DNA of 64,000 nucleotides from Nageia nagi. Lineage: Eukaryota; Plantae; Pinophyta. The notes beneath the pieces are model-generated. The model saw only the letters and a list, made by a program, of their open reading frames with translations, did no database searches and had not been told where the DNA came from. Location: the NCBI GenBank assembly GCA_050084985.1, contig JBITNC010000001.1, forward strand, positions 179,986,001 through 180,050,000, written 5' to 3'. A program made the position numbers and the translations under genes. This document shows, piece by piece, positions 536-54,040 of this stretch. Each line of letters starts with the position of its first letter. Within the stretch, counting starts at the first letter, position 1.

Positions 536-882
536 AATTTGTTTCTTCTGACAAATGATCTAATTAAAGCATGTGACACTGATTAAGAGCTAGGATATGT
601 CAGAAGGTATCTCAATCACATGAGAATTGTTTTTCAGATTTGTTCCTTCTATTCCTTGTAGGATTCCTTATCTATTGGAATTTTGGAAATCATGCATTAG
701 TACACATTGCTTTATTAACTACAAAACTAGGCCTTCTCTTCTGTGCAAGGTTGTTATTGTTAGAATCCCACATGTTGGGAAGGAAACCTTTCCTCTTACT
801 CAGCGATCGTCCATATGATCAAGATGGGAAAGCAACCCAACATGTAGGTGAGAACATATTACTGAACTCCTCTTGTAAGGAC

Positions 883-2315
883 TGATACCCCAAGGTTTCT
901 GATGAAAATTTGATGGACACCCCAAACTTGGTTTTTGATGAAAATTTGTCAAATTTTTCATTTTAGGCACCATTTTTCACTCCATTGGATTTGGAAAAAT
1001 ATGGAAAACTGTTTCTAGGAATTTGAGCCACCAAACTTACTCAAAATTGAAAGTTTGCAAGTTTAAATGTGCTAGAAATGCCAATTTTGACCCAATGAGC
1101 ACCTTAGGATTGATTTTTGTTGAATTTTGCACTTACCCCTCCAAGTTAGGTGCCAAAATGCAAGTCTATGGATTTCCAATCACTTGGAAACTTGCGCCTA
1201 GGATTTTAGGGCACTTCCATTGGTCAAAATCAAAAATTTGTAGACCTAAAGTGCCTTAGAACAGGATTTTACATGCAATCAAACCATCTCCCTTGATTTT
1301 CAAGACAAATTTCATTTTTCCCTTGGTAGCTAGGTGCCAAAATACACCCCATTGGATTTGCCTAGCCTTGGAGGGCTCAAAACTTGCTCAAAATCGAAAA
1401 TTTCAAGTCCTAATTGTGTTAGAAATAACCTTATTTCTCCAATGACGCTCTTAGACTTGATTTTCAACACCATTTTGCAATTCCTAGGAGCTATGTGTCA
1501 AAACCCAGGCTTGGATATCACTAAAATCCTCAAACTGTGCTCTTGGGCACACCTTGTGCATTCCGGACCCATATCCACCATTTCCAAGCTTGAACTTGAC
1601 TAAATCCACATTTTTCGTCATTTTCAGGCTTAAACTGTGCAAAAACGATCATTTTCGGCATTTGCGGTCAAAACTGAGCTTAAAGTCTGAAAAAGATCAT
1701 TTTCGGCACTTCAGAGCTCAAACTCTACATTTTCAGCCAAAACCACACTTTCCAAGTATTTTGAGCTCAACTTTACATTTTTTACCATTTTCGAGCTTTC
1801 CGAGATCAAAACATGCAAAAACGCACATTCTTGCCTTACTAACCACTTCCGGCCTCAAAATTGACAACACATTTTCTATCACACTTGCCCTTTTCTAGCA
1901 TTTCGGGCTCAAAATTGACAAAAACACTTATTTTTGTCATTTTAGCCATATTCACAGCTCTAGGACTTAATCTTGACAAAAACGCTCATTTTCGTCACAC
2001 TTGGCACTTTTGAGCTTAAAACTCTGAAAAACAACCCCATCTCTATTGACTGCACTCTAGACCAAAAATCTGTGCTCTAATACTCTCTCTTAGATCTTGG
2101 CTCCTTGGCTCCAAAATTGGTGACTGAAAACTTTGATACTCTTCAAGGTCTTCATCGCAAGATCTCCTTGAATCACTCCCTGATATCATGTTTGCACTCT
2201 TCAGAATGAACTATCCGTCGCCAAAAGCCAATCTCAAGGCAATGCACTTTATTGCCTTTGCAAAAATAGGGTCCCCAAAATCTTGAATTTTGGGGTGTAT
2301 TGTGCGGGCACAACA
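883..2315 (-). mobile_element. 5' fragment of a TGTTG...CAACA giant-LTR-like element, abutting/inserted in the 5' LTR of the Reina-like element
   Basis: Reverse complement from 2315 reads TGTTGTGCCCGCACAATACACCCCAAAATTCAAGATTTTGGGGACCCT, homologous to the starts at 13667, 36176 and 39019. Degenerate internal repeats at ~1560-2030. The left end is uncertain and no TSD was found. Confidence 0.7.
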
Positions 2316-5300: not shown

Positions 5301-8240
5301 TGTTGGTTCATAAGAAGGATGGATCATGGCACCTATGCATAGATTTAAAGCTCTCAACAAAATCAAAGTCAAAATTCCCAATTCCTATCATTGATGAATT
5401 GTTGGATGAACTTCATGGAGCTAAGTATTTTTCAAAATTGGATTTACGATTTGGATATTATCAAATCAGAATTCAAGAAGACATCCCTACAAGAGCTTTT
5501 CGCACTCATGAGGGCCATTATGAATTTTTGGTCATGCCATTTGACCTTAAAAATGATCATTCAACTTTCCAAAGTTTGATGAATTTAGGTATTTCACTCT
5601 TATCTCAAAAATTTATTTTGGTTTTCTTTGATGATATTTTGGGTTATAGCAAGACTTGGGAGGATCATTTGGCTTAGTTGGACAAGACATTGCAAATCTT
5701 GGGTGAAAATCAATTGTATGCCAAATGCTCAAAGTGCTCTTTTGGGCAGAATGAGATTGAGTAACTCAAACATATCATTTTTGAAGAAGGGGTTAAAGTG
5801 GACCCATATAAAATTGAAGATATGATGAATTGAACGATCCCAAAATCATTGAAAAGTTTGCATGATTTCTAGGATTGATCGGGTATTATTGTAAGTTTGT
5901 AAAAGATTATGGTAAAATAGCAACCCCATTGACAACTTTACTCAAAAAGAATGTTTTTGTCTAGTCATCGAATGTCGAAGATGCTTTTAATAGGTTCAAA
6001 GAAGCTATGTGCTCCACCCCAGTATTAGCCATCCTAGACTTCTCTAAGACCTTCGTGATTGAAAGCGATGCTTCAGAATAGAAATTTGTGTAGTTTTCAT
6101 GCAAGAAGGAAGACCCTTGTCCTTCACCAAAAAGGCACTTTTAGGAAGGAATTTGGCATTGTCAACATATAAAAAGAAGATGTTAGCAATCATTCATGCC
6201 ATCCAACATTGGCAGTCATACCTCATTGGTGGACATTTCATTATTTGCATATATCATCATAGTTTGAAGTATTTTGTGGAAAAATGTATCTCTACTCCCT
6301 AGCAATAAAAGTGGGTCACTAAACTATTGGGGCATGACTATGAGATTGTGTATTGCAAAGGGAAGGAAAATATAGTAGTTGATGCTTTATCATGAAAATT
6401 TGAAGAACTGACAACATTGCAAGCAATCTCTTTACCTATTCCCCAATGGTTAGACCAAATAAAACAGGAAAAGCACAATGACAACACAACTCGAACATTG
6501 ATTCAGTAGCTCCAAAGTGACCCTTTTGGGAAACCCAACATCACTTGAAGCAATGGAGTACTTTGGTATAAGGGATGCATTGTATTGCCCTCTAAATCTT
6601 CCAACCAAGTTGAGATACTTCATGAGTTACATGCAATGCCCACAACAGGACATTGGTTTTCTAAACACATACAAAAGGGTGGCTCAATCGTTTTATTGGG
6701 ATGGAATGAAACCAAACATCAAGTCCTTTGTTGCAAAATGTGGTGTTTTTCAACAACAAAAGAGTGAAACAATGGGTACTCTGAAACTACTTCAGCCTGT
6801 TCCCATACACAAGCGCACTTGGAATTCATTTATGGTCTTCCAAAGTCTTGTGGATCCATTGTCGAAGTATGCACATTTTTGGTTGTTCTTAGCTAACCTC
6901 TATAAGGTTGTTAATGTGGCTCAACTTTTCCTTGATAACATTTTCAAGCTCCATGGTTTGTCATCGACTATAGTAAATGATCGAGATCCTACTTTCACCA
7001 ATCATTTTTGGCAAAAAAATTTCAAGCTTCAAGGAAGTCAGCTCAACATGAGTTTTGCATATCACCTCCAAACTAATGGATAGACAAAGATTGCTAATAA
7101 ATGTTTGGAGACTTATTTGCATGGTTTTGCTTCTGCACAACTTGTTCATTTGGTTAAATGGCTTCCCCTAGAAGAGTGGTGGTACAATACTTCCTATCAT
7201 ACTACAATTAAAATGATCCCCTAGGAAGTTTTATATGGCCAAGCCCCACCAACAGTGACAACCTATATTCCTGGAAACACCAATGTTCAAGCAGTGGATT
7301 TTGAGTTGACCAATAGGTGGGGTATTCTTCACCTTCTTAAGGAGAACTTGTAGACTACACAGCAACAGATGAAAAAACAAGTTGATCAACAATGGTTGAA
7401 AATAAATTTCAAGTGGGAGATATGGTATTCTTGCAACTTCAACCTTATCGTTAGATTTCTCTCAAGCTAAAAGGACCCCAAAAGTTAGCTCCAAAATTTT
7501 ATGGACCTTACAAGATTTAACGCATTGGACCAACTGCATAGAAGTTGGAGTTACAGGAGTCTTTGAAAATTAATCCAATGTTTCATGTATCTTGCCTCAA
7601 GAAGGTCATCAATTCACAGGTGAAGGTACAAAGTTACCAATATAGTTACCTGATTTCACAAAGGATGGCTCTTTAGTTGTGGAATCTAAAGCAATCTTGG
7701 AATGACGTACCTATCAACTTTGCAATCGCACCATTATTGAAGTTCTAGTTCAGTGGCATGGATTCACCCCTAAAGATGTTACTTGGGAAGTACTTTATCA
7801 GCTTCAATAAGAATTTCAATTTCAACTTTGAGGATAAAGCTTTTTCCAGGAGGGGTGGCATGTGAGGATCCCACATCCTAACATTTCATTATTAGTAATA
7901 GTATAGTTGTTTGGTATATCGTCTTGTAATGTGAACCGCCATGTTTGTTTTGTAATGTATACCGCCATTTTGTAGCGCTCAAATATTTTGAACCGTCGGT
8001 CTTTGTAAGTAGTTGGATAAATTTGAGCTAGGGTTAGAGTAGTAATTCTATAAATGTGTAAGAGGGGAAGAGATTATATCTCGAAGAAAGTATTTTGTCT
8101 TTGAAGATGTGAGGAAGCCCCCTCGAAGCAACCTACAATTCTCATTGTTATTTCATTAAAGCTATGTTTTTTGTAATCTGAATCGTGTTATTTCATTTGA
8201 TATTCTTTGTTTATGCTGTTATTTTGAATATTCTTTGTTT
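2316..8240 (+). mobile_element. Decayed Ty3/gypsy chromovirus (Reina-like) LTR retrotransposon
   Basis: 5' LTR 2316-2741 (first bases displaced). PBS TGGTATCATAGC at 2744-2755 (tRNA-iMet type). PPT AGGAGGGGTGGCA at 7848-7860. 3' LTR 7861-~8240 is clearly homologous to the 5' LTR. Confidence 0.93.
3556..7850 (+). pseudogene. gag-pol pseudogene (gag, Zn knuckle, protease, RT, RNase H, integrase, chromodomain)
   Basis: GLCYNCDEKYVPNHRC (~4410); LIDLGSTHNFID (~4665); KKDGSW..FSKLDLRFGYYQIR..FFDDIL (5300-5677); RNase H (6099-6302); integrase KLHGLSSTIVNDRDPTF (6517-7083); EVLVQWHGFTPKDVTWE chromodomain (~7740). Many stops and frameshifts. Confidence 0.93.
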
Positions 8241-12999: not shown

Positions 13000-13967
13000 A
13001 CCACTCCCAGTATTCAAGGCTGAGAAGAAGCGAGTGATGCAGGTTTTTGATGTCATCCTAGGAAGTCTTTGTTGGAGTTGACAGTGGATTGATCTCGTCA
13101 TATCTCTATGGTCACCCGGGCGCTTACTATTTGAGACTCCTTGGGGCTGGAAGAAGGAAGGGATAAGTCTGAATCTAGTGCCTATCTTAAGTCTATTATT
13201 GAGTTTTTTTCTCAGATAAAAAGAGCAATGGACCTCTAGTGTTCCTAGTTTATCCCAGATTTTAGTGTATGGGTGTCTTTAAATAAGCAATAATGTTTGT
13301 CATGTATCTCATAGTAGATGGGGCAAGTGAAGATAAAATGCTCTTCAAATTCCACTTCGAGATTGCAAAATTTATAAATACACTAATCTTTGGGAAGGTG
13401 GTGATTTGTCTCAATATGTAGTTGGTGTGAACAAGCTCGTAACTGGGCTAGAGGGAACTTGAGGCTATGCGACATTTGCATAAAGTTATCTTTTGGGTTA
13501 GTGCTCAATCTATTTTCTATTTGGAGTTAGAAGCAAAAAAAATGAAGTAGCTTCAGTGATAGAGGCTCCTTTGGTTCAATCTATGTAATCTTTCGACATG
13601 TTGAGTATATCTCGTCTCTATACTCCTTATTAATACTAAAATATGCAGCATTAGTTGGCAGCTTAGTGTTGTGACTGAAACACAACATGCCCCCAAATCT
13701 TGCGATTTTGGGGACCCTCAACACTTCATGTAAATACTTTGCAATGTTGTAGTCTTATCCAACTCAAGTGATGTCGCAAGACCCAGATTCAAGGACAAGC
13801 CCCTCACGTTCAAGCCTCATCCTTCGTCCAAAGTCAATCATACCAAGCTAAAAGTGTGAAATTCTTCCAAAAATGGCTAAGTCCGGAAACTGAACGTCAA
13901 CCTTAGGTGAGCTAGGAGAGTCTAGGACGAGCCATGATAGAATCAAGCCAAACTGGGTCACTCCTAG

Positions 13968-14941
13968 GGTTGGCGCATGATTTCAAAAGACAAAATCTTG
14001 TCTTTTTGAAACATGCAACTAGACCTGGGAGCCGTCCAAACTAAAGTTGAGGCTTGGAAAAGCAATCTGGGCCACTTTCAAGCCCAACGCATGCCTCCAG
14101 GAGAGAAAATCTTTACTTTTCGAAGCATGCGCCAAGGACAAGCAACAAACTGGACCAGGATGAAGCTCGAAAAGACAAGGTAGGGATACTTCAAGGTTGG
14201 CGCATGGTCTCAAAAGACAAAATCTTGTCTTTTTGAATCGTGCGACCAAACTGGGAGAAGCAACTGGGCGAGTTCAAGGATTGAGAAGTGAATCCCAGGC
14301 ACCCAAGAGGCTGGCGCAAGCCTCAAAAAGACAAGATTTTGTCTTTTTGAACCATGCAACTAGCCCAAAAAGGCTTGCAATTTGTTCAACCAAGAACAAT
14401 GACTAAAGCATGAAGCTTGAAATCTCGGGACCAAGTCCAACACACCCAGGAGGGCTGGCGCATGATTCCAGAAGATAAGTTTGTGACATTTTGAGCCATG
14501 CGCCAAGCCCAAGAAGCCTCTAGGATTGACCAAAGGGGGGGAATTTGGCAAAGGCAAGGGAAAAAAAGCATCAAAGAACGAAAAATTGGCCATCTGGAGG
14601 TTGGCGCATGATTAAAAAAGACAAAATCTTGTCTTTTTTAACCACGCAACCAAGATGGACGGGCAGGAAAGGCTTATGCATGCCTTAAAAAGTCAAAAAC
14701 ATGATTTTTGGAATCATGCGCCAAGCTTGAGGAGTGCCCAAGTTGAGATGAAAGATCAAATTCGACAAGTCCAAGCACCAGAAAGACCAAAAATCAGGAA
14801 AGATCAGGTCGAAGGGCGAGTTCACAATCGAGACAAGCAAGCAAGTGAACAAAAAGGGCCAACGTTTGAAGCATGCTCAACCCCAAGGCTAGCGCATGAT
14901 CCAAAAAGACACAGTCATGTCTTTTTTGGCCATGTGCCAAG
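13968..14941. repeat. Array of 8 spaced ~53-bp palindromic units (GGYTGGCGCATG-N-AAAAGACAAAATCTTGTCTTTTT-N-CATGCG)
   Basis: Units start at ~13968, 14081, 14195, 14309, 14452, 14599, 14671 and 14887, separated by dissimilar spacers of ~20-160 bp. Confidence 0.9.
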
Positions 14942-15093
14942 CCAGAATGAGCTCTAAAACCCCAAGGTCCGGTCACAGGCAACTTGACATGAATTTTGGC
15001 GTAGGCACACATCTCGAGATCGTCCAAACGGATGGCTAAGATCAAGTTTGCTCATTAACCTAATTGACTAGGGTTAGATGCAAGCCAGTTTGG

Positions 15094-15102
15094 CTATAAA
15101 TA
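15094..15102 (+). promoter_or_regulatory. TATA box upstream of the orphan ORF
   Basis: CTATAAATA, 230 nt before the ATG at 15324. Copy C has TATAAAA at 40724-40730 before its ATG at 40865. Confidence 0.5.
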
Positions 15103-15323
15103 CAAGCCTGGGGACTTCATTTTTTCAAATCCAAAACTCGCTCCTTTTCCACTTTTGTGCCAAAGTAGCAGGAAACTGCAGATTTTTGAGCTTGAATCCC
15201 ATCATAATCTATCCTAGGGCTTGCGCAAGCATTTGGAAGGCAAGCCAATCCAATGTGGGGTGCCTTCACCACTTGGAAACCCTTGCATCACCCTTGAGAG
15301 ACTTCGTTGCAAACCTGAACACC

Positions 15324-18300
15324 ATGACTACTCCCAAGGGCAATGTGGCTTCAAACTTTGCTAGGGACCTCGAGCAGTTGACACAAGATTGCGTTATCAC
15401 TATCTATGAAAGACAAGACTCCCTTCCCCAAGGGGCCAAATTCTCGAGGAACGTTCTTGCTACCATCAGAGATACAGAATGGCAAGACATTGATTGAGAG
15501 ATAAAATACGGGAGTTACCCATCAGTGACCTCAAACAAGACATTGTCTTCTTCTTTGGACTCTCCACATGCACATGTGTACCCTTCACAGCTCCGTTTCT
15601 TGAATTGTGCATGGAGGTCGACCATCACTGGCAAAAGGGGGGGAGAGTCCTCCGTGATATCAAAGGAGACATCATCATGGACTTCAGCCCCAACGCCATC
15701 AAAACGGTGTTCCAGTGGACTCAAGAAGGAAATTTCAAGTACAACGAGGCACAATCACTGGCATGCTATCAAGAGACCAACAGGGCCGTTGTTGCAATCA
15801 AGAATTGGATGTTGGATGACCATCATGGACTCAAGGGTAACACTCTCATAAATGCTCCTCGTTCCAATTTCTATCCTTCAATTAAGTTGATGATCTTGAT
15901 GTTGTCCAAGGTTCTCGAGAAGGAAGATGCTTCTAAATTCAGGAAAGAGTTCTTTGGCTTCATCATTGAAATTGCTAGAGGGAAAAGGATTAGGTGGAGC
16001 AAGGTGTTGAGTGACACAATAGCTGATCAGTTATCATCCATAGGCACCACTCGCAAATTCTACCTCAATTCATACCTAGTGTACATGTTGCTTCACGACG
16101 AGTACAGGGCCATGGCGAAAGGAGAATCAACATTGATCGAGAAAGGGACCTATGCCATTTGGAGATGCTACCCTAAATGGAAGCTTGAGAGGAGATGGGA
16201 TAGTTTCACCATGAAGAACAATGGATGGGAGTATGAGATCTACAAGGAGCTCAAAGGAGAAATCACAGTGGCAAGGATCTCTAACTCAGCCCAAGATGCA
16301 TTGAAGAAGCATGGGGACTTCTTCCTCCATCACCAACACTATTCCTATATCAAAATCCATGGGTCAGCCGTGAAGTCGTATCAATTGCCAAGGTTCATGA
16401 GCAACAAATTGCTTCTTATGGAGATGAGGCAATTGGCCTATCTACATGAATAGGTACGGAAGAAGAAATCGACTTCTTCAAATTTGTCGATTATAGTAAG
16501 TGAATACCAGTGTAAATCTTGGGCGGACGTTCACACTATGAAGGAAGAGTTAGCGAGATGTAACTTCAAGAAGATGCCTACCGCCGACCATTATGACCTT
16601 AACCACAGGATGCACCAGTTCTTCATGAAGGAAAGGAAGAAAGCATATAAGTACAAACCACGTGGAGAAAAGGAACCTTTCCGAAATGGGAGTAACGAGG
16701 TAGAGATGAGAAAGATTCGCGAAAAGATGCATAAAGATGCCCATGATCAGCAACACCTTGTCGAGGCCACTATCAACAAGAGATTATCACAACAGGAGGG
16801 AAGAAGACCTCAAGAGTCCACATCCAGGGTCACCCAGTTTCCTCCCACAGTTGAAGCACCAGTTGGACAGTATGCGTCAATGCGTGGCAAGAACCCAATA
16901 GAGTAGAAGTAAGGGATACCATTGATGAGCACGAAGTGAGAGAGCTAGAACATGTGGCCACGGACAAGATGGTGAAGTGTGTCAGGAATAGAGAGAAGGA
17001 TTCAACCCCACCACCAAGATCACCTAGAGAAGTAATTGGGAGTCCATCACTAGTCATTCCGCTATCTAGGTCTGCATCCACTAGTCCCGCATATGAACCT
17101 GACAACCATGAGGAAGAAGAGGAAGTCAGTGAGACAAAAGAAGAACAAGGAGTAAGTGCATATTAGCACGATGAAATCCCAGATACACGGCAAGAAGACG
17201 AATCCTTGGAGATAGTGAAGGTAGTCCAGAACCCCACAGCTTCCAAACCATCCACAGAGAAGGTTAAGGGATGGGCCTCAGAGACAGTACAGAGAAGAGC
17301 CTAGTTGAAGAGAACTTCACAATCATGGACAACAAAAACCTCCGAGGAGCTTGGTGAAGAAGAGGCAAGACCCTCGAAAAGGGCCAGGAAAAGTACCACC
17401 ACCATTCAGGAAGTAGTTGTTAAGACTCATTAGCCATCACCTACAGATGAATGGAGAGTTAATATGGAGGAGTGTCTGGATGTGTTCAACATGGATGTTG
17501 AGGAGGAGTTTGGAGTGAGAGAAGAGAATGATCAGATTAGAGAAAGCTCCACTCGCCCGAGTAAGACCTAGACTTATGTGCATCTAGCCAAGAACACAAT
17601 TCACATCAAGACTATAATCGCAGAGAAGGAGAATTCCCAACGACTTGAAGATCTCAGGCAGGTGAACCAAATCATCAATACAGGTCCTATTGGTTTGGCT
17701 GGTCGGAAACATGCAATCATCTCCACCCTTGAGGCGATTACCAAAGATGGGATGATGAAAGAGAAAGAGATTAAAAGCCTCAAGAAGAAGTTAGTTGCAC
17801 AAAAGTAATTGACTAGAGAATTAGAGTTAGCTAAGGTGCCCACAGAGGAGCTTCGAAAGATAAAATCACTTGAAGAGGGCATGATTGCAGTGAAACAGGA
17901 AAAATTGATGAGGTCTTAGTAGTAGTACAGTAGTTCATTGGTGCACTACAAAGGGTAGCATTTGAAGAGCAGAAGCTGAAGGATATTGTGGTGGAGAGAG
18001 CCAGCCTTCTCAGGATTTTGGATTCCCGAAGGCCTATGATCATGAAGTTGGAGATGACACGAGACCGAAGGCTCGAAGATGTGAAGTTTTGTGAAGAGTA
18101 CTGGTTCTACTTGGGTGTCGTCAACCAGATAGCCACACATTTCCAGGAGGTGCAGAAGCAGGTCGAAAAGCTCAATGACAAGGCTAACACTAGCCTCAAG
18201 CAGATGGATTTCCAGGTCAAGTTCATTGATGATGATGCCACCATTTGAGATAAAGACCTGGTAGTGGCGAAAGTGAGGCACTTTCTTCACAGTCTAATCA

Positions 18301-18527
18301 TGACTGATGATGTCAACACCTACCAAATTGGGAGTCACTTGAAGCACCTACCTAAAGCTCGCACTTGGAAGGATGATATGCAGAGGATGGTGGACAAGGT
18401 TGGACGCCGCATCACTAGGAACGGGCCAAAGCTATCATAGATGCTGCACGGGTTAGAACTCACAGCAAAGTTCTTGGATGAAGATTTTGAAAGACGCATT
18501 GAGGTGTTGGGCCCACATGTGCCTTAG
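15324..18527 (+). pseudogene. Disrupted ~1060-codon orphan gene of element A
   Basis: Same-strand ORF pieces 15324-15497, 15494-16453, 16484-16906, 16936-17166, 17578-17808, 17988-18248 and a tail ending ...ERRIEVLGPHVP* chain through single stops and frameshifts. Collinear homology with 40865-44446. Confidence 0.85.
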
Positions 18528-20621
18528 TCGCAATTTTCATAGTTTTATGTTATTTTCAAGAAAATGCATTTATTTTATGAAACATTTTGATTATATTTGA
18601 TATTTAATTCCTATGTTTGAGATGGATGAGGATTTGCTCCCACAAACTTGGAAGACATTTAGTAATGCCATGTGGCAAGCTTTGATTGAACCATTTGTTA
18701 CTTCTTGGATTTTGAAATTAGGGTTAGGGAAACATTTAGGGTTGCCACAAAACTATTTATAGCCCACTAGGGCTCATTTGTAGGGGATTAGATATTTTTG
18801 CACTTGTGAGAGACTTAAATTTTACTTCCAATTCAGCAAGTTTGCTCCATTTACGAATGTGATATACTCCAAGTAATTGAATTGTAAATGCTCTCATTTG
18901 AAACAATGAATGTTAATGGATGTTACTTTCTTATGTTGTCTTGAATACTTGGTGCATTTTGTAAATCCGGTTTAAGGTGGACAAAAGAGTGCTTGAACAT
19001 TCTTAGAAGTACTTCAAGTAACGCATGGTTATGTAATGATTCATAGTTTGCACTTAGGACTTGTACACTTTATGATGGCTCCCATATGTCACTTAGTCTA
19101 GGAACTTCACTCCTTTGATTAAGGTCTACCCACCTCTCACCCCTTTTACCTCCATCGCCTTAGCTTCAAGCTCCTCTTGCTAGGTCATTTGTGTCGTTGC
19201 CCAACAAGTTGGATTCAGAGTGCGTGGAACCTATGACAAGCCCGTGAGAGTTGAGTCTTAAAACCTATACCAATCGGTGAGAACATTGAGCTCATGTGCT
19301 GAATTCATATATCACTGTCTTCTCAACCTTTTTTCTTTTATTTTTATCCTTTTTTGTCGGGCTTTTGCAACCTCCCTTTTCTTTTCCTTTTGAAAAACAA
19401 CCATTCCTGGGGACAAGGACCCTTCGAGTCCTTGGTTAATGAATACTATTTGAGTTGGAGATAGCTTCAAACATCTCTACCAATCCCCTGAGTCACCTCT
19501 TGCACACTACAACACTAAACCTTTGAGGTAACCAGTCCTCATAGCGGGTAGGTGTCACGCCCTACCACTCAAGTGTCGGTGTCTTTCTATGGGCCTTGCA
19601 ATTTAAATTGCCCATTAGCAAGGTAGGAAACAAAAAGCCCCCAACACTTAGTAGGAAGGAGTCTCCATTATAAGTATTTCAATTTCGAAGGCTTTTATGG
19701 CCTTTGTTTCTTCATTATAAGTATTTCATGCATGATTTGAGTTATTCTTTCATTTCAAATTTGGTTTTAGTCACTAATCTATAAGGACAAGCTTGGTCAT
19801 CATCTAAGTTGATCGTAACCCCTGCAAAATCTAGGACGAGTCAATCCCCCCAAAACCATTGAACTTCCAGGTGCTCTTTAGAAAGAATTCGATGGTGAGT
19901 TTCTAAGGGTTAGAACTCTGAGATGCACAACATATCACATTCCTTGTTTCAAATTGATATATGTTAGATTTACAATTGTGATGCTTGTTTGTTAGATCTT
20001 CATGGGCCTAGTTTGTTCATTAATGTTATATTACACTCCTTTATTGATATTTCTTCTAGGCAAATTCTATATTAATCTTGTAGGCAAATTATTGGGTTTT
20101 ATTATTGTTATAATTCATTTTTTTCATCTACATTATTGTGTAAGGAAACAAATGTCAAATTATTATGTTGTATATGGAAGATGTAATCTTATGGGATAAT
20201 GTATCACTATCACCAACATGTGGCAAATATATCAGGTATCCCTTCATGGTTTAAGGGGCCCATAGGTTCTATTTCATGGGGCTTTAACATCCATGGTATT
20301 ATTAGTTGTTAGACATAAATATAAAAGGGAGATGTCATTAATCATGTCTTCAAACATTGTACACGAAAATTTGGAAGGTTGCCCCTTCATAGTGGCTATG
20401 CATATTATGGTATTTCTCTATCTTAAGGGTTCTCAAATATCTTATGTGCAATTCCTTTTGTTCTTCAATTATTTTTGCACATTGTGGTGACATTTTGTGG
20501 AGTATTATTCTTATTTTCTAGCATTTGCAAGTTGAATCATAACAAAGGAAGGCAACTTTTTTCCCCAAAACTACAAATACAACCTTACCCAATATAGATG
20601 CATTATGTATAATATTCTTAC

Positions 20622-35374: not shown

Positions 35375-36480
35375 TTTGACTTCCTTGAGCTGGGTTTCCC
35401 ACCTCCACTCCACTCTAGAGTGTTATTTTTAATAGCAGAACTTGTATATCTTCCCTATTTACCCACATTTGTTGTTTTCTAGAATTTTTAATTGTTCTTG
35501 TTCTGGAATGTTCATTTTCCTTATTTCCTTTTGTATTCTTCCCTCTTTTCCTACTATTTCTTTTTGTTAGTTGTCTTTCATGCTCTTCAGCAACTACATC
35601 TATCTCTACATTTGCTTCGTTCTCAGCCTCTTCTTCTGCAGTCTCCTCTTCTTCTTCTGGCTCCTCTTCTTTCTCTTCATGCTCATTTCCATCTATAGAC
35701 TTTTCCGGTGTTTTAGTAGACTCTACATTGATATCCCTCTCTTCGAAGAATTTGAGTTTCCTAAACTTCATATGTTGTTTCTTCCTCATTTTCCTCTAGA
35801 AATTCCTTTGTAATGTTTCCCAAAATTTCATATCAGTTTCTTTGAGCTGATGTTTGGGGTATTTCTGGAAATTTCTTTGGATTTTGTATTTTTTCAGGCA
35901 CTTTCCCCAGTAGTTTGTCTTGTGCTTCCTTCATTAATTGATCTGGTCCCTTTAAGGTCCTTCCTGCGGTATTTCTTTTTCTTTTTCTTTTCCTTTTCTT
36001 ATTTATTGATCTTGGTTTTCAATCCTTCTACATGTCCATCTCCATTCTATATTTTGCCTTTGTCTTCTGTCATTTGCTGGTTTAGTTGGACAGTCTTTTC
36101 CAATATGGCCAAAGATTTTGCATTCAGTACAAGCCATTGGCTTTAAGTTGTGGGAAAGTTTTTGAATATGCTCCCTATTCTGACTGAAACACAACATCCC
36201 CTAAAATCTTGCAATTTTGGGGACCCTCAACGCATCATGTATATGCTTCGTTTTGTCGTCGTCAATCCCACCCAAGTTGCGTCTCAAAGACATAGATTCA
36301 TGGACAACCTATTATAGTTCAAGCCACTTCCTTCGTCTAGGGTTAGTCATGTCAAGATAGGAATTTCAAAATCTCTAAAAAAATGGATAAGTCTGGGAAA
36401 GGTAAAAGTCGATCTTAGGTGAGAACTAGGGAGTCTAGGAAGAGTCGGAGCTTGATCAAAGCAAACTGGGGATCTCCAAG

Positions 36481-37448
36481 GGCTGGCGCATGCTTCAAAA
36501 AGACAATCTTGTCTTTTTGAACCATGCGACTGGGCCTAGGGGTCATCCAGACAGAAGGGAAGGCTCAAGAACGGAATTTGGGCACTTGCAAGCCCAGCAC
36601 ATGCCTCCAGAAGACAAAATCTTGTCTTTCCTGGGCATGCGCCAAACACAGGGAGCGAAATGAAGCCAAAGTAAGCATGGAAAACCCAAGGCAAAGGCAC
36701 TACAAGGCTAGCGCATGGTTTAAAAAGACAAAATCTTGTCTTTTTGAACCATGCGACTTGGCCAGGAGGACAAGATGAGCAAGTTCGGAGGTCGGGAAAT
36801 GATCATGAGTCATCCAGGAGGCTGGCACATGCTTCAAAAAGACAAAATCTTGTCTTTTTTAACTATGCACCAAGCCTAGAAAGGCTGCCAGTCTGAGCAA
36901 AGTGGAAAATTTGACAAGTCCCCGGACTCAGGAAACTCAAGACCAACTCAAGCATGCCCAAGGGGTTGGCGCATGGTCTAAAAAGACAAATTCTTGTCTT
37001 TTTGACACATGTGCCAAGCCTAGGAAGCCTTAGGATTTGAAAAAAGTAAAAATTTGGCTAAGGCATGGGCACTTGAAGATCAAACTCTGGAAAATAGGCC
37101 AACTGGAGGCTAGCGCATGCTTCAAAAAAAAAAATCTTATCTTTTTGAACCATGCGACCAAGCTAGATGGACAAGCAAGGCTAGCGCATGCCTTAAAAAG
37201 TCACAAACTTGACTTTTGGAAGCATGCACCAAGCCCACAGGTTGCCCAAGTTGAAATAAAACATCAAAATTGATAAGTACAGCTGACCAGAAGACCCAAA
37301 ATCAAGAAAAATTAGGTTACTGGGTGAGTTAGGTGAACAAGGCAAGCAAGCATGAAGGCAGGAGACCCAAGGTTGGAAGCATACACACCCTTAGGGCTGG
37401 CGCATGGTTCAAAAAGTCACTTTTTTGTCTTTTTTTCCATGCACCAAG
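36481..37448. repeat. Array of 8 palindromic units, positionally equivalent to 13968-14941
   Basis: Units at ~36481, 36591, 36706, 36820, 36964, 37108, 37179 and 37394. Confidence 0.9.
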
Positions 37449-37534
37449 CTAGGTTGAGCATTAAAACCCAAACGTTTGAGCACAAGCGGCTTTATAGGAG
37501 GTTCTGGGCTGGCACACATCTCGAGGTCAGCCAG

Positions 37535-37694
37535 GTGGGAGAAGGATATGATGAGGGTCACCGACAAGGTAGAGCGTAGCATGGTGAAGAATGGGCCGAA
37601 GCTATCAAAGATGCTACATGGATTGGAGCTCACAGCCCAATTCTTGGACTACTTTGAACGGCGTGTAGAAGCGTTGGAGCCACCATCTGCCTAG
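37535..37694 (+). pseudogene. C-terminal remnant of the orphan gene in copy B
   Basis: WEKDMMRVTDKVERSMVKNGPKLSKMLHGLELTAQFLDYFERRVEALEP matches WKDDMQRMVDKVGRRITRNGPKLS*MLHGLELTAKFLDEDFERRIEVLGP at 18367-18527. Confidence 0.85.
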
Positions 37695-39200
37695 TCACAA
37701 TATTTGTTGTCTTGCATTTATTATATTTCATAAGTTATTTTTGGAGGCTTTATTTATTTGTTAATAAATTCCCAAATTTGTGATGGATCAGGATTTGCTC
37801 CCACAAATTTGGAGGACATCTTGTAATGCCATGTGGCAATGTTTGATTGGACCACTTATTATTTCTTGGAACTCGTAATTAGAGTTAGGGCAACATCTAG
37901 GGTTGCTCTAAAAATATTTATAGCCCATTTGGGCTCATTTGTAGAGATCAGACATTCTTTGCAACTGGGGACTACTTACATAATACTTTCAATCTTGCAA
38001 GTTTTCCCTTTTCGCAATTGTGATATAATTCCAAGAAATTGAAGTGAGCTTGTTTTCATTTGGGACTATGAAAATGAATGAGTGTTACATTTTTATGCTA
38101 TCTTGAGTATTTGAGACATTTAATAAACCTTGTTGGTGGATAAAAGAATGCTTGTATATCCTTTCGAAATATTTAAAGAAGTGTTTGATTGTAAAGTTTC
38201 ATAGTTTGCACATGAGATTAGTGTGTTCTAAGATGACTTGTGTATGTTGCTTAATATAGGAACTTCACTCCACAATTGAGTTCTACCCACATGATACCTT
38301 TCTTATCCATCGCCTTAGCGCCAAGCTCCTCTCGTTGGGATGTTCGTGTTGTCGCCTTTCGAGTTGGATTTGGGGTGAATGGAACCTATGCCAAACCTGC
38401 ACAAGTTCAGTCTTAGAAAATCGTACTAATCGGTGAGAACATTGCCCTAGAGCTGAATTCATATATCACCGTCTTTCCACAACTCTTTTTCTTTATTTTC
38501 TAATTCTTTGTGCGGCTTTTGCAAAAAACCTTTTTTTCCTTTTCGTTGAGAAACAACCATTCCTGGAGTAGAGACCCTTCAAGTCCTTGATTAACAAATT
38601 TCATTTGAGTTGGTAATAGCTTCAAACATCTCCACCATATCACCTGAGTGAACCCTTCCATCCTTCATTTTCAAACCTTTGAGGTAAAAGTCCTCATAGC
38701 CGGTAGGGGTCACACCCTACCACTCAGGTGTTGGAGTCTTTCTACAAGCCTTGTGATCCAATTTACCAATCAGCAAGGGTAGGAAAGAAAAAGCCCCCAA
38801 CACTCCCCATTTTTGTTCTTCAAACAGATCCTATTTTGTAAGGGTTTAGAAACATCAATATTTGCACAAAGACATGTTGAGGCATACCTCTATGCTTCTC
38901 TTGTATTTTTAATTTTATGCAGGCAAATGAAGGTTCTTAAAGATTTGGCTACCCCTTTTATAAGATCCACACACCAGAAATCCAAGGGTAGGTTTGGAAG
39001 GGTTATGCATATTGGTACTATTGTGCCTACACAACACCCCCCAAAATTTTGCATTTTGAGGACTCTCGAAAATAAAAGGCCAATGTATGTAAGTAAGACA
39101 TCTGTCTAGAAGGAATGTATACATCTTGGTCTAGTTTCAGGAAACATGCTAAACTTGCACATTCATAATCAAATCAAGTCAAAAACCTGCATTTTTCCTC

Positions 39201-40616
39201 AGTCGCACATTTTGAGGGACATGCTTTTGCACATCCCCTAAATGGTGCAACCAACCTCATGTTGCATTTTCACACTCATACTTGCATTTTTCAGCCTTAG
39301 AGTTGCACTTTCGGGGTCCCTCATGCTGCAAGTCCATTTCTCTTTCATTGCATTTCGTATTTAAGGTCATCATGGTCAAGTTTCAAAGATAAAATAGGTT
39401 TTTCAGCTAGTCGCATGTTTTCAAGTGTATGCTTTTGCACCCACCCAAAACCGTGCGATCAAAACTGGGAACTCATACTTAGCAATTTTTCGCAAAAAGG
39501 CTTAGTTGCATGTTTTTAGGTGTGTGCTTTTAAAGCACCCAACTCAAACCATGCGACCAAGGAGGAGAAGACTAAGACTTAGCCGTTTTTAGAGCTTACA
39601 AGGCCAATCGCATGTTTTTCAGTGTGTGCTTTTGCACCCATCCAAAATCGTGCGACCAAATTCATGGGGTAAAATTTGGTTGTGTCGGACTCAAATTGTT
39701 GACGAGTTTAAGCACATGCATTTGACCACTTCTTGCACTAATCATATAACGGCACCTGTCCTATCCAAGAAGGCTATAAAAGGAAGTTCAACCTCGATCA
39801 TTCTGTTTGGAAGGTTGCCAAGAGCACTGCGTGGAGCTAAGGGAGAAAAAGCACGTCCTTCAAAACTTGCGACCTGTTCAAATTTGCATTTTTTAGTCAT
39901 TTTTCACCTATGTTTGAAATTTCTAGTCTCGGGAAGTGTGCCAAACCCCAAGCGCATCATTTGTTATACATGAAAAAGCAACCCTCCCGAATCATACGCC
40001 CAGTCTCAAACGTTTTGGCTCCGAGTGAAATTGGCAAAGTGTTTGAAATCTAGAGGAAAAGGCCAGGCACAGGGTTTAAGGTGCATGCTTTTGAACTCTT
40101 CTAAAGCGATGCGACCAGGAATTGGGCCCCATCATACATTTAAATTTGACTAAGTTCCCTACCCCCTAGTCGCATGCCTTTTGACACATGCTTTTGCACC
40201 TGTTCTAGACCATGCACCCTCTATTTTAGCTCTACCATTTGAACATGAATCCGACCAACCCAGAGGTGACACGTGGCAACCCGCAAGGTTATAAATATTA
40301 GGCCACCCCTTAGTCACTTTTACCACTTCGTCTCAGATTTTCTCCATACTCCCCAGTCACACCATTTTCTAGCATATGCTTTTGCACTCTTCTAAAACGG
40401 TGCGCCAAGAAAGAAATAAGGAGTTTAAGGGGGCCATTATGCATCCAAATAGCCCTTGAGGTGCATGCTTTGCAGTGCATGCTTTTCCCCTCACCCAGAT
40501 CCATGTGCCTAGGTGTGAGGTGAAGAATTATAACCCAGAATTTGACTAAGTGACCCAAATCCTAGTCGCATGCATTCCAGATAGTGCTTAAGCACTCATC
40601 CAAAACTGTGTGTCCA
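39201..40616. repeat. Array of ~9-10 spaced ~52-bp units (AGTCGCATG-N-TGCTTTTGCAC-N-CRTGCGACCA)
   Basis: Units at ~39201, 39408, 39503, 39606, 40066, 40167, 40355, 40460 and 40563, plus a degenerate one near 39700. Confidence 0.85.
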
Positions 40617-40984
40617 GGGTTACAAGGCAAAGTTGGTTAAGTTTGAGATGCCAAGAGTTGGGAAGAGAAGAAGACAAGTGGCAAGCATGCACCTTGCCAT
40701 ACATTCACCCTCAATGCATCTCATATAAAAGGAAAGCAGTTTTCATTTAGTGTGTTGGACGTCCTGCAACCCAAACCTACACATTTGGTTCTTTCCTGCT
40801 ACACCCTTCACAGCATCCAAGCTTGTCCTTAGGTCCTTCCAGGGGCATTTTCAAATAATCCTGCATGGCTTCCACTATTAGACCTCCTCCATCAAGAGCC
40901 AGGAAAATTCAAGGACAATTGTTTGAGAGACATGTGACTAAAAACCAGATGGCCCGGCTTTCGAAAGAAAGTTTGATTGAATTT

Positions 40985-40987
<3 letters not shown>

Positions 40988-41031
<44 letters not shown>

Positions 41032-41035
41032 GAGA
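40988..41035. repeat. (GA)n microsatellite
   Basis: Direct inspection. Confidence 0.95.
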
Positions 41036-41360
41036 AACCAGAGCTCCCTGAAGCCAAATTTAAAGGGAGATACATCTTTGTTGGTGATATAAACTGGGAA
41101 AACTTGGACCCCATCCAGACTTTAGCCTCTACTGCCTCCATCAATAAGGAGTACATATCAAAAGAGCTTATCCACACTTGTGGCTTGTTCAATGCCACTA
41201 TGATGCCTTTTGCAGTACCTTTTCCTGATTTGTGCTATGAGGTAGCCAGGAGATGTGCATACGACAAGAGAGTCCTACAGGACACAGAGGGAAATGTAAT
41301 TATGGACTTCTCCCCTGTTGGAATTGAAGCAGCCTTTGGTTGGAAAAGGTATGGGGACGA

Positions 41361-41448
41361 CTACACACTAGCATATTCTGAGGAGTTCCATGATTCCATA
41401 GCCTCTACACACTAGCATATTCTGAGGAGTTCCATGATTCCATAGCCT
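41361..41448. repeat. Perfect 44-bp tandem duplication
   Basis: CTACACACTAGCATATTCTGAGGAGTTCCATGATTCCATAGCCT twice. Confidence 0.95.
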
Positions 41449-44400
41449 GGCCTGGGGACTACATTCGACCATGGTTACTTGAAGATTATCAGAATCTTCA
41501 GAGCCAAAGGCTGATCAACACTCGTATAGAGGATTTTTTGCCTGTTGTGGCCAAGCTGATCACTCTTTTGTCTAAGGTCACTGGTCAAGAAAATGATACT
41601 AAGTATAGAAGGGAGTTTACGAGCTTCATTGCGGTTATTAGCTCGAAGAGAGCTATCCGATGGGCTGGGGTAATCAGTGATGCCCTACACCAACAGTTAG
41701 CTTATTTTGGCTCCTCGAAGAGATTCTACATGAATTCCTATCTTGTGTACTTGTTATTGCATGGCAAGGTCAGGTCTAAGGAGTTGGCTGATGAAAGATA
41801 TTTAGAACAAAAGAGCACCCCCATGTGGCGAGCTTATCCAAAGTGGTGGTACCCAAACAAGTTCCAGAATTTCTGTGACAGAATTGGTATGATATCTACA
41901 AAGATATCAAAGGGGAGTCAATGGTGAAGAGAATTTTTGATGCAGTCGTCCAAGCCATCAGTGTACATGTAGATATCTTCCTGCAGAATGCTGACCATAC
42001 ATTCATCAGAGCCTATGGCTCAAAAAGAGCGACCCTTGCTCCTACCAAGATATGCCAGCGACAGACTCATCCTCATGGAGTTTGCTAAGCAACTCTTGTT
42101 CTTTAAAGAGAAAGTTTGGAAGAAGAAGAATGCGACCATTAACTTGGCTATCTGAATTGCAAGGTATGTGTGTCAGACGTGGGTTGACGTAGCTAGAATG
42201 AAGGAGCTGCAACAGTATGCCTTCTCCAAAAAGGCAACAGCGAGAAACTATGATCCTAGAAATAATTGCACATTTCTACAGCACTACATTCCACAAACCT
42301 ATCGCTTTTCAGCATAAATCTTTGGAGAGTGTGGAGAAGTATTGAAACGTGCAAGATGAGGAGATTGCAAAGATAAATGCTCTCCTGAGCAAGAAAAAGG
42401 CTCCCCTCCAGGTAGAGAAACCACCTCAGAAACCCCGAACTACTAAATCTAGATCTACAGAGGTCCCTCTCAGGATCGAGTCATCTCTTCCTTTTGTTCG
42501 AATTGCACCACCACCAGTTAAGGCACCCTTGCTTCCTGTTGGAAGGAGGCAAGAGGCTCCGAGGGAGCACATTCCAGGCCCTAGCAAGCGTAGTGTAGTA
42601 ATGGCTGATCTCAAGGATGCTGGCTATCATACTATCCCCTCGAATGTACTGGATGAGGCTTGTGCCAGTGATTCGCCCATAAAAGAGGTCCCTTCCAGAC
42701 CCACTTGTTCTTCTGGATGTAGGGAGAAGGTTCCCCCTTTGCAACCAAGTTCTACTTCCAGTTTTGAACATCCCACTTCCTCCTCCAATGAAGAGACTGA
42801 TGAAGAACCCGACTGTAAACTAGAAGACTCCGGAGAAGAGTCAAAAAGCCGTGGTGAAAGAGAAGAAGAAGAGGAAGATGATGATGATGCTACCGATTAA
42901 AAAGATGTAGCTATACGTGCCTTTGCACTCGATGAGACGGAGATTGAAACTCTTCCAGATGAAAATGAGATAGTGCACGTTGGAACCTATGATGATGAGG
43001 TCCAGATCGTTGGAGATAGGTGTACTAGAGAGGTGGGTGCTTCCAAACCCTCTCTTGCCAAGCATAGGAAAAGGTCCCCTTCTTCATAAAAACCCTCTAC
43101 AAAGAGAACGAGCCATGAAAGGTGCCCCTAGCCACGGAATAAAGGCATATCTATAGGTGGCGATGGAGGAGATGAAGAGGATGAAGGAGAGATTGAGGAA
43201 CAAAAGAAGAAGAGAAGGTAGGAAGAGCACCAAGGCAAGGAGATTACCTTAGTTCAGACCACTCCAGCAAAAGAGGTCAAGAAGATCAACAAAGGACGAT
43301 TGTTGGTACAGAGGTTTCCTCCCCAGCCAACGCATCCAAATCTTGACCTAGATGCCTGCCTTAGAGCCCTCAGCATAATTACAGCTCATGATGAAGACAT
43401 AGACCAAGATCTACGCTCTAAAAATGAGGAAGAGGAGCTTTTAGATGGTTAAAAGATTTGAAGGGTTGATACATTTGTCTCCACCTCCCGAAAGGAAATC
43501 TCCATCAGCCATTGCTATTCAAAGGAGAAACATCCTCAAAGAGCAAAAGATTATGTTATCGAGACATTTAAGATGCTTGTGAAACTATGATTGACAACCT
43601 GTAAACATAGTCACTCAAAACGTTGCAGTCGTGGAGAAAGAGGGGTACGAAGCCAAGAAGGAGGTGAAAAGGCTGAAAAGGGAACTCACGGCCAGCAAGA
43701 AGATCATCAAGGAGTTCTAGAAGGTCAATACCACCCCTCAGATCTACAGAAGCAGACCTCCTTCCATGAGAGATGGGATTTGATGAAAAGAGTAGCTGAA
43801 GAAAGAAATGATGGAGGCTATCGAGAGATTGTCTTCTCGAATTTACAAGCTCCTTGCTGAAGGTGTGGAAATCAGGGACCTTAAGACACAAATATCAACA
43901 CACCTTAGCACATTGAATGGCCATTTTCCCAACGTCTCCCATCTGCAACATGTTTACGCTGACAATCCTAAGAAGTTAGTCTATTGCCACAAGTTCACAT
44001 ACCACCACAATTGGTTGAATCATGCACTCGAAAAGTGTAACGCAGTCTTGAAGCTCATAATCCCCTTGAGATTGGAGGTCGAGGAACAGATGAGTTACTA
44101 TGCCTATCAGCTAAAGTTCCAAGGGGAGGACAACAATGTGAGAAAGAAGGAGGTGGTATTGGTAGAGGCTCAGAACATGATATAGGAGCATCTAGACATC
44201 GATGATCTCAATTTGCTGAAGGCAGGGCATCCTATCGACCGCAAAAGGCGGATGGTCATCTAGAGGCACTAGATGCAGGCTACATCTAAGAAGATAGAGG
44301 ACTACTTTCCGTAGAATGGTAGCACCATCGGTATGATTTCCGGGGGCATGCGGAAGACTGTGACATTCTTGGAGGAGACCATTGAATCGTACGATCTCAC

Positions 44401-46634
44401 CAACAAGGAGTGGAACTCCGCCAGTACCGAATCAAATCTTGCCTAAGTCTGATCCACTCACAGATTTACTTTGTGATATTTGTTCTTTTGTTTAAATGCA
44501 TATTTGATGGTGGTTGTTATGTTAGATTCTATTTACTTGATTTGACTGGTGCAAGGATGAGTTTTTGCTCCCGCCGGGTCAATCTATCAGACTCATTTAT
44601 GACTCTGATCGATGCAGGGATGAGGTTTTGCCCCCGCCGGTTCAGATGTCAAACTTTTCATTGCATATTTGATTTGATTTTGAGTAGTTTAGAGGTAGAT
44701 TAAATGCACTCTAGTAGTGGCATTTATATTTTGTCAGACTTTTAAGTGCCACTTGCATCATTTCATGTGAACAATCTGATTTTGTATCGGTATGTGTGTT
44801 GCATGTGTGCACATCATATCAGATTTGATGCCCTTAGGTAAACACTTCTAGTGGCATATTTATACTCCATCATGGCCTTTTAGAAGAGGATTTGGCATTT
44901 GGGATTTTTGCATTTGGAATACTACTGATGTTGAGAATTTTACGCATATTTGCACATGTGAGACTCTGCATTTAATAGAAGTATTACATATTGAGGATCT
45001 TGCATTTCGAGATGTTGGTTTCAAACCTTTACATGTGTAAGATTCTTTGAGTTTGTTTAAAGCTTTTACATTCTGTTGCATAAAGGTTTGCTGCATAAGG
45101 GGTTCTATGCATGTTCATTATTGAATATCATTATGAATGTATTTCTTTTGTGGGATGAGATTATAAAGTTAATATTGTGAAGGATATCATTTGTGGGATC
45201 ATGCATATTTGAATAATTGTCCCCTTGGAGTTGCATATTGAATATTCATTGAAGTAGTTTGAGTCGTTCTTTGCATGGTTTGTACGTAAGTCGATGTATT
45301 CTAAGGCTCATAGCTTGTCTTTATACCATTCGATTAGGTTCCTATGCTCACACCTCACCTCATTCATTTCTTCCCACTGAGTCTTCCACTAAGACCCTAC
45401 AGCTTCTTGCTCTTGTCTAGTAGTGATTTGAGCACATATTGCTATTTGTTGCCCGACTTGATAGTGAGTACATTGACCTTAATGAATTTGAAGATGACCT
45501 GCAGAGACACTACATCACTGGTGATACCTTCATAAGTTCATCTTTCCCTGTATTCCTTGGCATTTATCCCTGTGTTTGTCCCTGCATTTGTGATCTTTCT
45601 TCGCTTTCATTCACATTTGTAGTCATTTCTCATTGTGGAGAAGAACTCTGGCGTTGTATTTCCCTTGTATACGGTTAACAACATGCATCTCTGACTATTG
45701 TGCCTTAAAGACCATATTCCATGTGAGAGGTTGGGGTAACCAGTCCTTTCAGGCGGAAACAAGTAACGTTGTTTCCTCCAAGTCTTGTGCATGTTTTGGA
45801 CTAGGAAAGAAAAACATACCAACAGGTACCACTTCAAAAGATACTTTTTCAGGTCTAAAACTAGGATACCATTTTTTCAAATGTAAACCACTTTTACCGA
45901 ACCACCAAGGTCCATTTTCCAGTACCCATTCCATGTCTTCTTCAACATTAAACTCACAAATCAGGAAGTCACATGAGAGGGTTCCCATTTCTACATTTCC
46001 TTTAATGATCCAATTTTCTTTGATCCATTTTCTGACATTTTCCAGCACTAGTCTGGATCCCATAAATTTCCCAACCAGAGACAGCCTTCTTGTTTCATCT
46101 ATTTTCGATGTCAGCTCATCAAGCATAATTATTTTGGACATATCTTGTCATATTCAACTTTTTGGATATCTACGGGTACTCCTATGCTTAGTTTGGGCAT
46201 TCCGTTTTTGGTTTTTAAAGTCCAGAATCCGAGAGGGTTCCCCCCCAGGAAGGTTTGGGGTCCATGGTTTTGTTGCTTACCTGCTAATCACATGTGCTGT
46301 CTGATCTGTCCTGATCCCCTTCATTTGGGGATTCTCTGTTCATGGGCTTCATTCTCCCTTCTTCCCACCCCTTAAAATTTGAAATCGCCCGCTCCTGTAA
46401 ACTAACAATATGGCAACCATAGAGTTTCTGATTATTTACAATATGAAGAATCTGTATGTATACCCACTGACTGATGCAACAGCAAATATTAGAAGTTGGA
46501 ACTAATCAGATATCTCTGTCATTATATAGTATAGCTGCAATTGGAAATGATGCTTCTTAGTTTGATTTTCAGCTTGCTCAGTTAAGTACAAGTACATGAT
46601 TATTTTTTTCTCAGATGAAAGCCTGATCTAAGAT

Positions 46635-53600: not shown

Positions 53601-54040
53601 TTGAATATGTTAGGAACAGCAAAACACAATCATGTTGGTTCAGTTCAAATACTTTCTATTGAGGATGGAGATTGCCATGTTAAATTTCTGGATTTAGGTT
53701 CCATTGGCATGCACATTCCAGCTGTTGACAGCGACACTTATTCCAATATAATTGTTTATCTTGGCTGTAGCAGATTTTCTCTACCAGGTATTGATGATAA
53801 TGAGATTGGAATCTCCAACCATTGTTTCAAATCTGCTCATTTTGTAGAAAAAGTTGCCATGAAAATGGAAGAGTATTTTATTATTGGCAAACAGTTTTTA
53901 TGGGGTAAAAATGAGAATTTGTTTCTGAAATCAGGAAAAGGAAATTATTGAAAGAGATTCTTACCAAATACCTGGTTCATTGGAAGGGATTTCCAGATTC
54001 AGTTTTCATTGTTTGAGGACAAGCAATTTTGGGAGGGGTG
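50692..54040 (+). pseudogene. Disrupted orphan ORF inside the non-autonomous LTR element
   Basis: Same-strand pieces 50692-51042, 52142-52828, 52943-53137 and 53424-53951. Ends at FEDKQFWEGW, which resembles the gypsy pol end overlapping the PPT. Confidence 0.6.
51045..51864. mobile_element. hAT-type MITE
   Basis: 8-bp TSD CATTAGAC (51037-51044) / CATCAGAT (51865-51872), 6/8 identical. Imperfect TIRs CAACTTTATCAGGG / CCGTGACAACCTTG. Many GGGGAC/GTCCCC subterminal motifs and an AT-rich core. Confidence 0.75.

Follow-up and report, generated by a model that had tools for sequence, protein, structure and literature searches.

A long-conserved gene inside TG..CA units of the Nageia nagi genome, with a probable origin of the units as giant solo LTRs

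Non-chromovirus LTR retrotransposons of plants are described as typically carrying extra ORFs and having LTRs of up to ~5 kb (PMC6317226), and supplementary file 5 of the same paper gives 5-bp target duplications as the rule in most plant LTR lineages. Among element-encoded regulators, VANC of the VANDAL transposons has DUF1985 as its domain, and the repeated motifs bound by VANC are reported to co-evolve with it (bioRxiv 2024.09.27.615353, PMC5735166). No report of an ORF inside a plant LTR was found in the literature searched, which left most subscription papers outside its coverage.

The stretch of N. nagi DNA analysed here (64,000 nucleotides, hereafter the window) is a nested LTR landscape of 37% GC. 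In our best explanation, to which we give a probability of slightly more than one half, the gene-bearing unit described below is a solo LTR that derives from a very large Ty3/gypsy element, and the gene product would be an accessory regulator binding the element's own palindrome array. The origin of the unit as a giant solo LTR whose U3 region holds the gene is, taken by itself, probable.

Gene copies and the units that carry them

Two copies of the gene, A and C, were identified in the window. The six-frame translation placed the start codon ATG of copy A at 15324 and its stop codon TAG at 18527, and the broken copy C occupies 40949-44446. Each copy lies wholly within a TG..CA unit bounded by a 5-bp target duplication, a setting that was absent from the original prediction. 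At least three related loci, L001, L002 and L003, were found on metagenome contigs among the 592 pattern matches listed. The gene copy and the units are as follows.

13667..19646, + strand: unit A, 5,980 bp, TGTTG..CAACA, solo-LTR-like and gene-bearing (CTTAG at 13662-13666 and 19647-19651; depth edges)
15324..18527, + strand: pseudogene copy A, ~1,068 codons (54.8% identity to the L001 copy over 938 codons; three frameshifts; dN/dS)
36176..38802, + strand: unit B, 2,627 bp, a deletion derivative with both ends (target duplication CTCCC; 72-74% to the two ends of A)
39019..45824, + strand: unit C, 6,806 bp, a divergent gene-bearing subfamily with its own palindrome type (target duplication GGTAC; depth edge at the left end)
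773..2315, - strand: unit D, 1,543 bp, gene-less, with the same left and right hairpins (left-end profile E 3e-6; target duplication ambiguous)

Units A and D have the end motifs TGTTG..CAACA, and the starts of B (TATTC) and C (TATTG) were read as G>A decay. Exact 5-bp target duplications were present in all three units with clear flanks (A, B and C). B and C are both located within one LINE ORF1 (DUF4283), whose frame runs on across both units when one duplication is counted, demonstrating clean insertions. Unit B corresponds to the left 1.35 kb of A joined to the right 1.3 kb of A, retaining seven palindromes and the final ~54 codons of the gene, a remnant that is open and in which changes are commonest at third positions. 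Unit D was found with a profile of left ends, was missed by the right-end sequence profile, and is inserted close to a gypsy LTR edge.

The summed contig depth fell from hundreds or thousands inside unit A to 3-7 outside in four of four public runs, and at the unit ends overall it dropped from hundreds or thousands to ~2-11 in the four runs. This sharp drop indicated that the ends are family-wide and that the family is high-copy. A host gene was rejected by the high copy number, the target duplications and the insertion into the LINE. A long terminal direct or inverted repeat was found in none of A, B and C, and a mini-LTR or long-TIR structure was likewise rejected, the best left-right repeat being no better than E 0.2. 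Scanning 61 of the 85 ORFs of at least 85 aa, with some opposite-strand or short frames in the units omitted, detected no gag or pol domain within the units. Neither a primer site nor a polypurine tract adjoins any of the four window units or the two right ends outside the window, and both features occur in another element of the window. In L001 an inverted right end occurs upstream of the gene; it rests on 100% identical contig-end copies of 123 and 110 nt, and it was rejected as an element structure because such identical copies fit one normal unit scrambled during assembly. The ends of this contig are exact reverse copies of inner stretches (1-123, 900-1022, 1903-2012 and 5821-5930).

The non-coding anatomy was examined in unit A and compared among the units.

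13667..13725, + strand: left-end double hairpin common to A, B, C and D (alignment; fold z; the profile finds D)
13971..14939, + strand: palindrome array, candidate protein-binding sites (five pairs at 32-bp spacing)
15095..15100, + strand: TATA-like box TATAAA, candidate internal promoter (~230 bp upstream of the ATG)
18528..19646, + strand: 3' non-coding part (TAGGGTT motifs, TATTTATA at 18754 by motif scan; 79% alike in B)
19523..19572, + strand: two conserved right-end hairpins (~80-120 nt before the right end)

The left-end double hairpin consists of TGTTGTG-loop-CACAACA followed by a hairpin of the CCCCAAAAT..ATTTTGGGG type, with fold z values of -3.9 in A, -1.7 in B and -1.8 in C. The palindromes, located upstream of the gene, are inverted 9-bp half-sites of the TGGCGCATG type. 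Unit A has five, all 32 bp apart, B has seven at 30-32 bp, and C has three at 34-37 bp with a different spacer, so that the A/B palindromes are distinguished from those of C by spacer as well as by spacing. Palindromes of the A type were detected neither in the ORFs, nor in the 3' parts, nor in a further 48.5 kb of the window, and shuffles gave a mean of 0.02 and a maximum of 1. None was found by a strict pair search in the 608-bp upstream piece of L001, and D had none of that type. The half-sites contain CATG, as in the RY/Sph motif, and host factors could bind there instead.

The 45 nt around the TATA-like box are 80% alike in L001. By eye, a CCAAT-containing motif upstream of the start codon of A (15240-15275) seems to be repeated in unit D (1145-1355, - strand). 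Downstream of the gene, a second TATA-like motif is accompanied by TAGGGTT repeats, and we infer that 18528..19646 comprises the LTR promoter, R and U5. In the right-end hairpins, which are also kept in unit D, 7 of the 12 pairs were changed on both sides among six copies, and 93% of the cells were paired versus 47-58% in slid controls, in a comparison of only six related rows from which the structure itself had been derived. A search against Rfam gave no match within the window.

Several other elements were observed. The decayed L1-type LINE ORF1 (DUF4283, then a CCHC knuckle) occupies 34378-36175, 38803-39018 and 45825-46200 on the - strand, with B and C 216 bp apart, and an old gypsy element at ~760-8214 (RT, integrase zinc finger; LTRs 84% alike) has the edge of its 5' LTR split by unit D. 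The LTR element at 49330-55157 has LTRs of 1.1 kb (88% alike) together with a purine tract and a TGGTATCAGAG primer site; its internal ORFs of 131, 244 and 179 aa showed no Pfam match at cut-off, and the element may be non-autonomous or contain novel genes. A decayed gypsy internal region with gag, RT, integrase and SH3 lies at 28900-33140 (- strand), another repeat is present in two copies that have diverged (62%) and may be solo LTRs, at 47128-47678 and 56192-56757, and degenerate long (TTA)n tracts lie at 58830-59200 and 60250-60690.

Conservation and relatives of the protein

Copy A encodes a conserved N-terminal domain (to ~16750), an acidic/Pro/Ser linker containing RPSKRARK and a charged helical C-terminal part. 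The parts common to A and C are the N-terminal domain of ~400 residues and, more weakly, the C-terminal part. The N-terminal domains aligned with a similarity of 32.6% across 282 columns and of 38.2% across 68 (E 3e-52), and the C-terminal segment scored 121 versus a mean of 32.7 and a maximum of 62 in shuffles, with 0 of 1000 shuffles as high. The peptide pairs quoted in the original prediction were all found in the translations, as were both NLS-like motifs, RPSKRARK in A and KKKRR in C. Its statement that the two proteins align along their length applied to the two ends and failed for the linker, which is poorly alignable between A-type and C-type proteins. It had also noticed little DNA similarity despite the protein similarity, and indeed blastn gave one 40-nt match at the left end of the unit and two of 30-33 nt, and nothing more. 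A coiled-coil-like C-terminus had been proposed as well; a crude heptad proxy left the L001 copy without any such region and marked two in P0152, a distant relative, near residues 503 and 736.

Copy A carries three frameshifts (near 15496, 16905 and 17912) and eight in-frame stops, two of these in the tail. Copy C carries five frameshifts, one of which is a perfect 44-bp tandem duplication, and at least nine stops counted in the aligned part, along with an expanded (AG)n run close to the gene start. In L001 the frame was held across 971 codons with three stops. The first 2,555 positions of L003 (1-2555) are strongly depleted in CG and CHG (observed/expected 0.07 and 0.23) and contain many stops, the CG ratio of the other copies being 0.4-0.6.

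The dN/dS ratio was calculated by Nei-Gojobori counts between copy A or C and related copies. For A versus L002 it was 0.07 in the N-terminal domain and 0.10 in the C-terminal part, and for A versus L003 it was 0.08 in the N-terminal domain, 0.28 in the linker and 0.15 in the C-terminal part. No ratio was derived for the N-terminal domain of A-L001 or A-C because the synonymous sites were saturated (pS 0.80-0.82 versus pN 0.22-0.42), and the C-terminal part of A-C gave 0.41 with an interval of 0-0.75. In the unsaturated pairs, to which these values are limited, both end domains thus showed dN/dS of ~0.07-0.15. Long-term purifying selection on this transposon-borne protein, as had been proposed, was supported by these values, obtained where a ratio near 1 had been named in advance as contrary evidence. 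The gene is real and long-conserved, with ~1,070 codons, and copies A and C are now pseudogenes; it was kept as a protein during the divergence of the subfamilies and decayed once inserted.

The protein had been regarded as an orphan, a description that did not survive a full HMMER search, in which 320 clusters (50% identity) matched at E<=0.001 and 117 at 1e-10. A word-based search collected 57 fragments. Of 58 fragments sorted by type, 45 resembled A, 9 resembled C and 4 resembled neither. The relative P0152 is an uninterrupted protein of 1,010 aa with an N-terminal domain, an acidic linker containing a basic motif and a helical tail, such basic NLS-like motifs recurring in A, C and P0152. 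Two of ten relatives were named 'hypothetical protein' and the other eight had no name. Longer homologs were absent among 1,815 candidates, and scans of viral contigs and prokaryote genomes found no relatives.

No Pfam match reached the cut-off among the members and distant relatives scanned. The plant mobile domain (PMD, PF10536) appeared in one of 59 members (E 0.023; 14.3 bits versus a cut-off of 34.9) over the W-x-x-V-L-S-D region and in none of the distant relatives, 40 of the 150 listed having been scanned. DUF1985 (PF09331) gave no profile match among the members or the 40 distant relatives. For both queries the nearest named ESM clusters were DUF1985 and PMD, with scores of 0.76-0.79 (0.78-0.79 for DUF1985) against a lead level of 0.9, and the ESM neighbours carry a Streptophyta label. 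The sequence link to PMD/DUF1985 is therefore treated as a weak lead. This much remains of a suggested relationship to PMD or Transposase_28/32, the latter part of which fell away, as Transposase_28 and Transposase_32, like gag, env-like and Athila ORF1 domains, never matched Pfam at cut-off. A confident match to gag or to a host gene had been named as the other outcome contrary to the proposal, and none reached the Pfam cut-off.

In a 64-sequence alignment of the N-terminal domain, none of the catalytic sets D-D-E, HUH and tyrosine recombinase (R-H-R-Y) was conserved. One Asp alone was conserved above 70% (85%) and no His was; the conserved columns of the protein are aromatic and hydrophobic. 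No clear transmembrane segment was detected in the 971 codons of L001, where the best 19-residue hydropathy window, a single one, reached 1.79. Two structure models were of low confidence (pLDDT 33.6 and 53.6; pTM 0.24-0.26); with these models Foldseek returned nothing at E<=0.001 and the best VIA-align Z was 5.2, on helical hairpins. One PDB sequence search gave no match and the other a single match at E 0.65.

Origin of the units and role of the protein

The solo LTR reading was adopted because the ends and the target duplication are those of an LTR integrase, and a lone unit of this kind is normally a solo LTR. A full element made by integrase, carrying two such LTRs (18 kb or more), would have inserted, and LTR-LTR recombination would then have deleted gag-pol and left the solo unit. 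The gene would sit in U3 and have a TATA box of its own, the 1.1-kb tail would supply promoter, R and U5, and B and D would be short-LTR or deleted variants. The parent lineage is likely the Athila/Tat group, judging from the unit size, the extra ORF and the end motifs; a conserved fold, for which the literature searched gave no confirmation, may mark the LTR ends of Tat elements. As for the protein, the N-terminal domain is predicted to be a remote PMD/DUF1985-like DNA-binding fold and the C-terminal part is predicted to dimerise. Such a dimer would bind the spaced inverted half-sites and counteract silencing in the way that VANC acts for VANDAL transposons, so that the element would be kept on. 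By this analogy, the protein is predicted to regulate the palindromes of its own element in a sequence-specific manner.

Several observations count against this explanation, among them the left-end loose ends and the weak PMD and ESM matches treated elsewhere. A parent element with two such units around gag-pol was seen neither in the window nor in the three related loci, which are too short to span one. None of the window units or outside right ends has an adjoining primer site or polypurine tract. Units A and C, at 6.0-6.8 kb, exceed the LTR maximum of ~5 kb given in PMC6317226, and palindromes of this type are absent from the L001 piece and from D.

It is possible, on balance unlikely, that the units are instead complete mobile elements, each a single TG..CA cassette with structured ends served by an integrase in trans; B and D would then be deletion forms that are non-autonomous and keep only the ends. 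All four window units lack an internal region and, over lengths of 1.5-6.8 kb, have only their ends conserved; hairpins abound at both ends, those at the right end showing covariation, and the 32 left-end contigs listed share no common upstream tract. To our knowledge, however, no route copies one LTR-like unit lacking primer sites, and the contig method could miss short overlaps. Moreover, published solo:intact LTR ratios are 5.5:1 in non-Pinaceae gymnosperms (PMC9364684) and 2.8:1 in a Cupressus preprint. As far as these reported ratios apply, the chance that three of three units are solo is 0.20-0.39 at 2.8-5.5 (0.0001 at the Pinaceae ratio of 1:9), and four of four solo units would be unremarkable, at 0.12-0.29 by hand arithmetic.

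The loose ends of contigs bear on the same choice. At the right end, agreement was 0.54 versus 0.50+-0.014 for random flanks (16 contigs listed, three runs), a slightly non-random value that speaks against complete elements and allows a minority of units to be followed by a common sequence. At the left end the loose ends fitted random flanks: under a crude model (32 contigs listed, four runs), one third sharing a flank was rejected at P 0.007, and a shared flank was possible in up to about a fifth. A new kind of plant mobile element, namely a single TG..CA cassette with its own ~1,070-residue regulator, cognate palindromes, a borrowed integrase and end-only derivatives of 1.5-2.6 kb, is a doubtful proposal. 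If such a self-contained cassette did exist, units of this type would go unnoticed among the 'solo LTRs' of annotations and push solo:intact ratios upwards.

A solo LTR origin could also be combined with a different job of the protein, such as transport of the particle or integration complex, RNA handling or an env-like role, with the palindromes binding host factors; we consider this rather improbable. The domain link to VANC is weak, and plant extra ORFs are described as lacking a settled function, with several roles proposed (PMC7264820). Set against this, the L001 copy has no clear transmembrane segment and the NLS-like basic motifs recur in A, C and P0152. Finally, a reading of the gene as the transposase of a novel DNA transposon, one with terminal inverted repeats of 5 bp and with binding sites in its subterminal regions, would account for the single large ORF, the subterminal palindrome arrays, the deletion derivatives with both ends and the fixed 5-bp duplication, but is very improbable given the lone Asp above 70% with no His, the lack of a DDE, HUH or tyrosine-recombinase set, of a Pfam match at cut-off and of a PDB sequence match, and the restriction of the palindromes to one end.

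Comparison with known systems

If the giant solo LTR with a regulatory gene is real, a ~3.2-kb gene in a 6-7 kb LTR would mean two gene copies per element. Since a gene inside the LTR survives the recombination that disarms the element, solo LTRs could regulate the family in trans. The protein and its candidate target sites are neighbours in at least two subfamilies, an arrangement that would make the function of an extra ORF testable by a swap, and a large unnamed protein family (320 clusters) would gain a genomic home.

The closest counterparts are the extra ORFs of the OTA elements (Athila, TatII, TatIII, Ogre, Retand), especially those of the PMD or PMD-coiled-coil type, which are likewise described as conserved non-gag, non-pol proteins (PMC4408406). 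Their layout also pairs an N-terminal domain with a helical, charged tail, and the elements that carry them have LTRs of great length and target duplications that are mostly 5 bp (PMC4408406, PMC6317226). In contrast, they are reported either upstream of gag or in the interval from pol to the 3' LTR (PMC7264820, PMC4408406, PMC6317226), whereas the ORF here is inside the TG..CA unit and lacks a Pfam match at cut-off to PMD, Transposase_28 or Athila ORF1. Retrosat2, RIRE3 and RIRE8 resemble the present units in their long LTRs (over 3 kb), an unexplained extra ORF (ORF0) and a solo:complete ratio of 2.6:1, but ORF0 is placed upstream of gag-pol and outside the LTR, and those LTRs are half the size (PMC3485330).

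The location of the gene has its parallel in sag of MMTV, described as a gene in the U3 region of the LTR and hence kept in solo LTRs (PMC12548423). MMTV is, however, an animal retrovirus, its product is a superantigen, and no sequence relation to the present protein was found. Sag is also much shorter, at about 320 aa. The predicted function is closest to that of VANC of the Mutator-like VANDAL elements, where an element-encoded protein is paired with repeated non-coding motifs differing by subfamily (PMC5735166), and to the PMD-C proteins MAIL1, MAIN and MAIL2, the motif of MAIL2 being palindromic and PMD resembling DUF1985 as reported in bioRxiv 2024.09.27.615353. Unlike the present gene, VANC and the PMD-C proteins belong to DNA transposons or to the host; the homology seen here consists of sub-threshold hints in sequence, and binding to the palindromes is predicted from this likeness.
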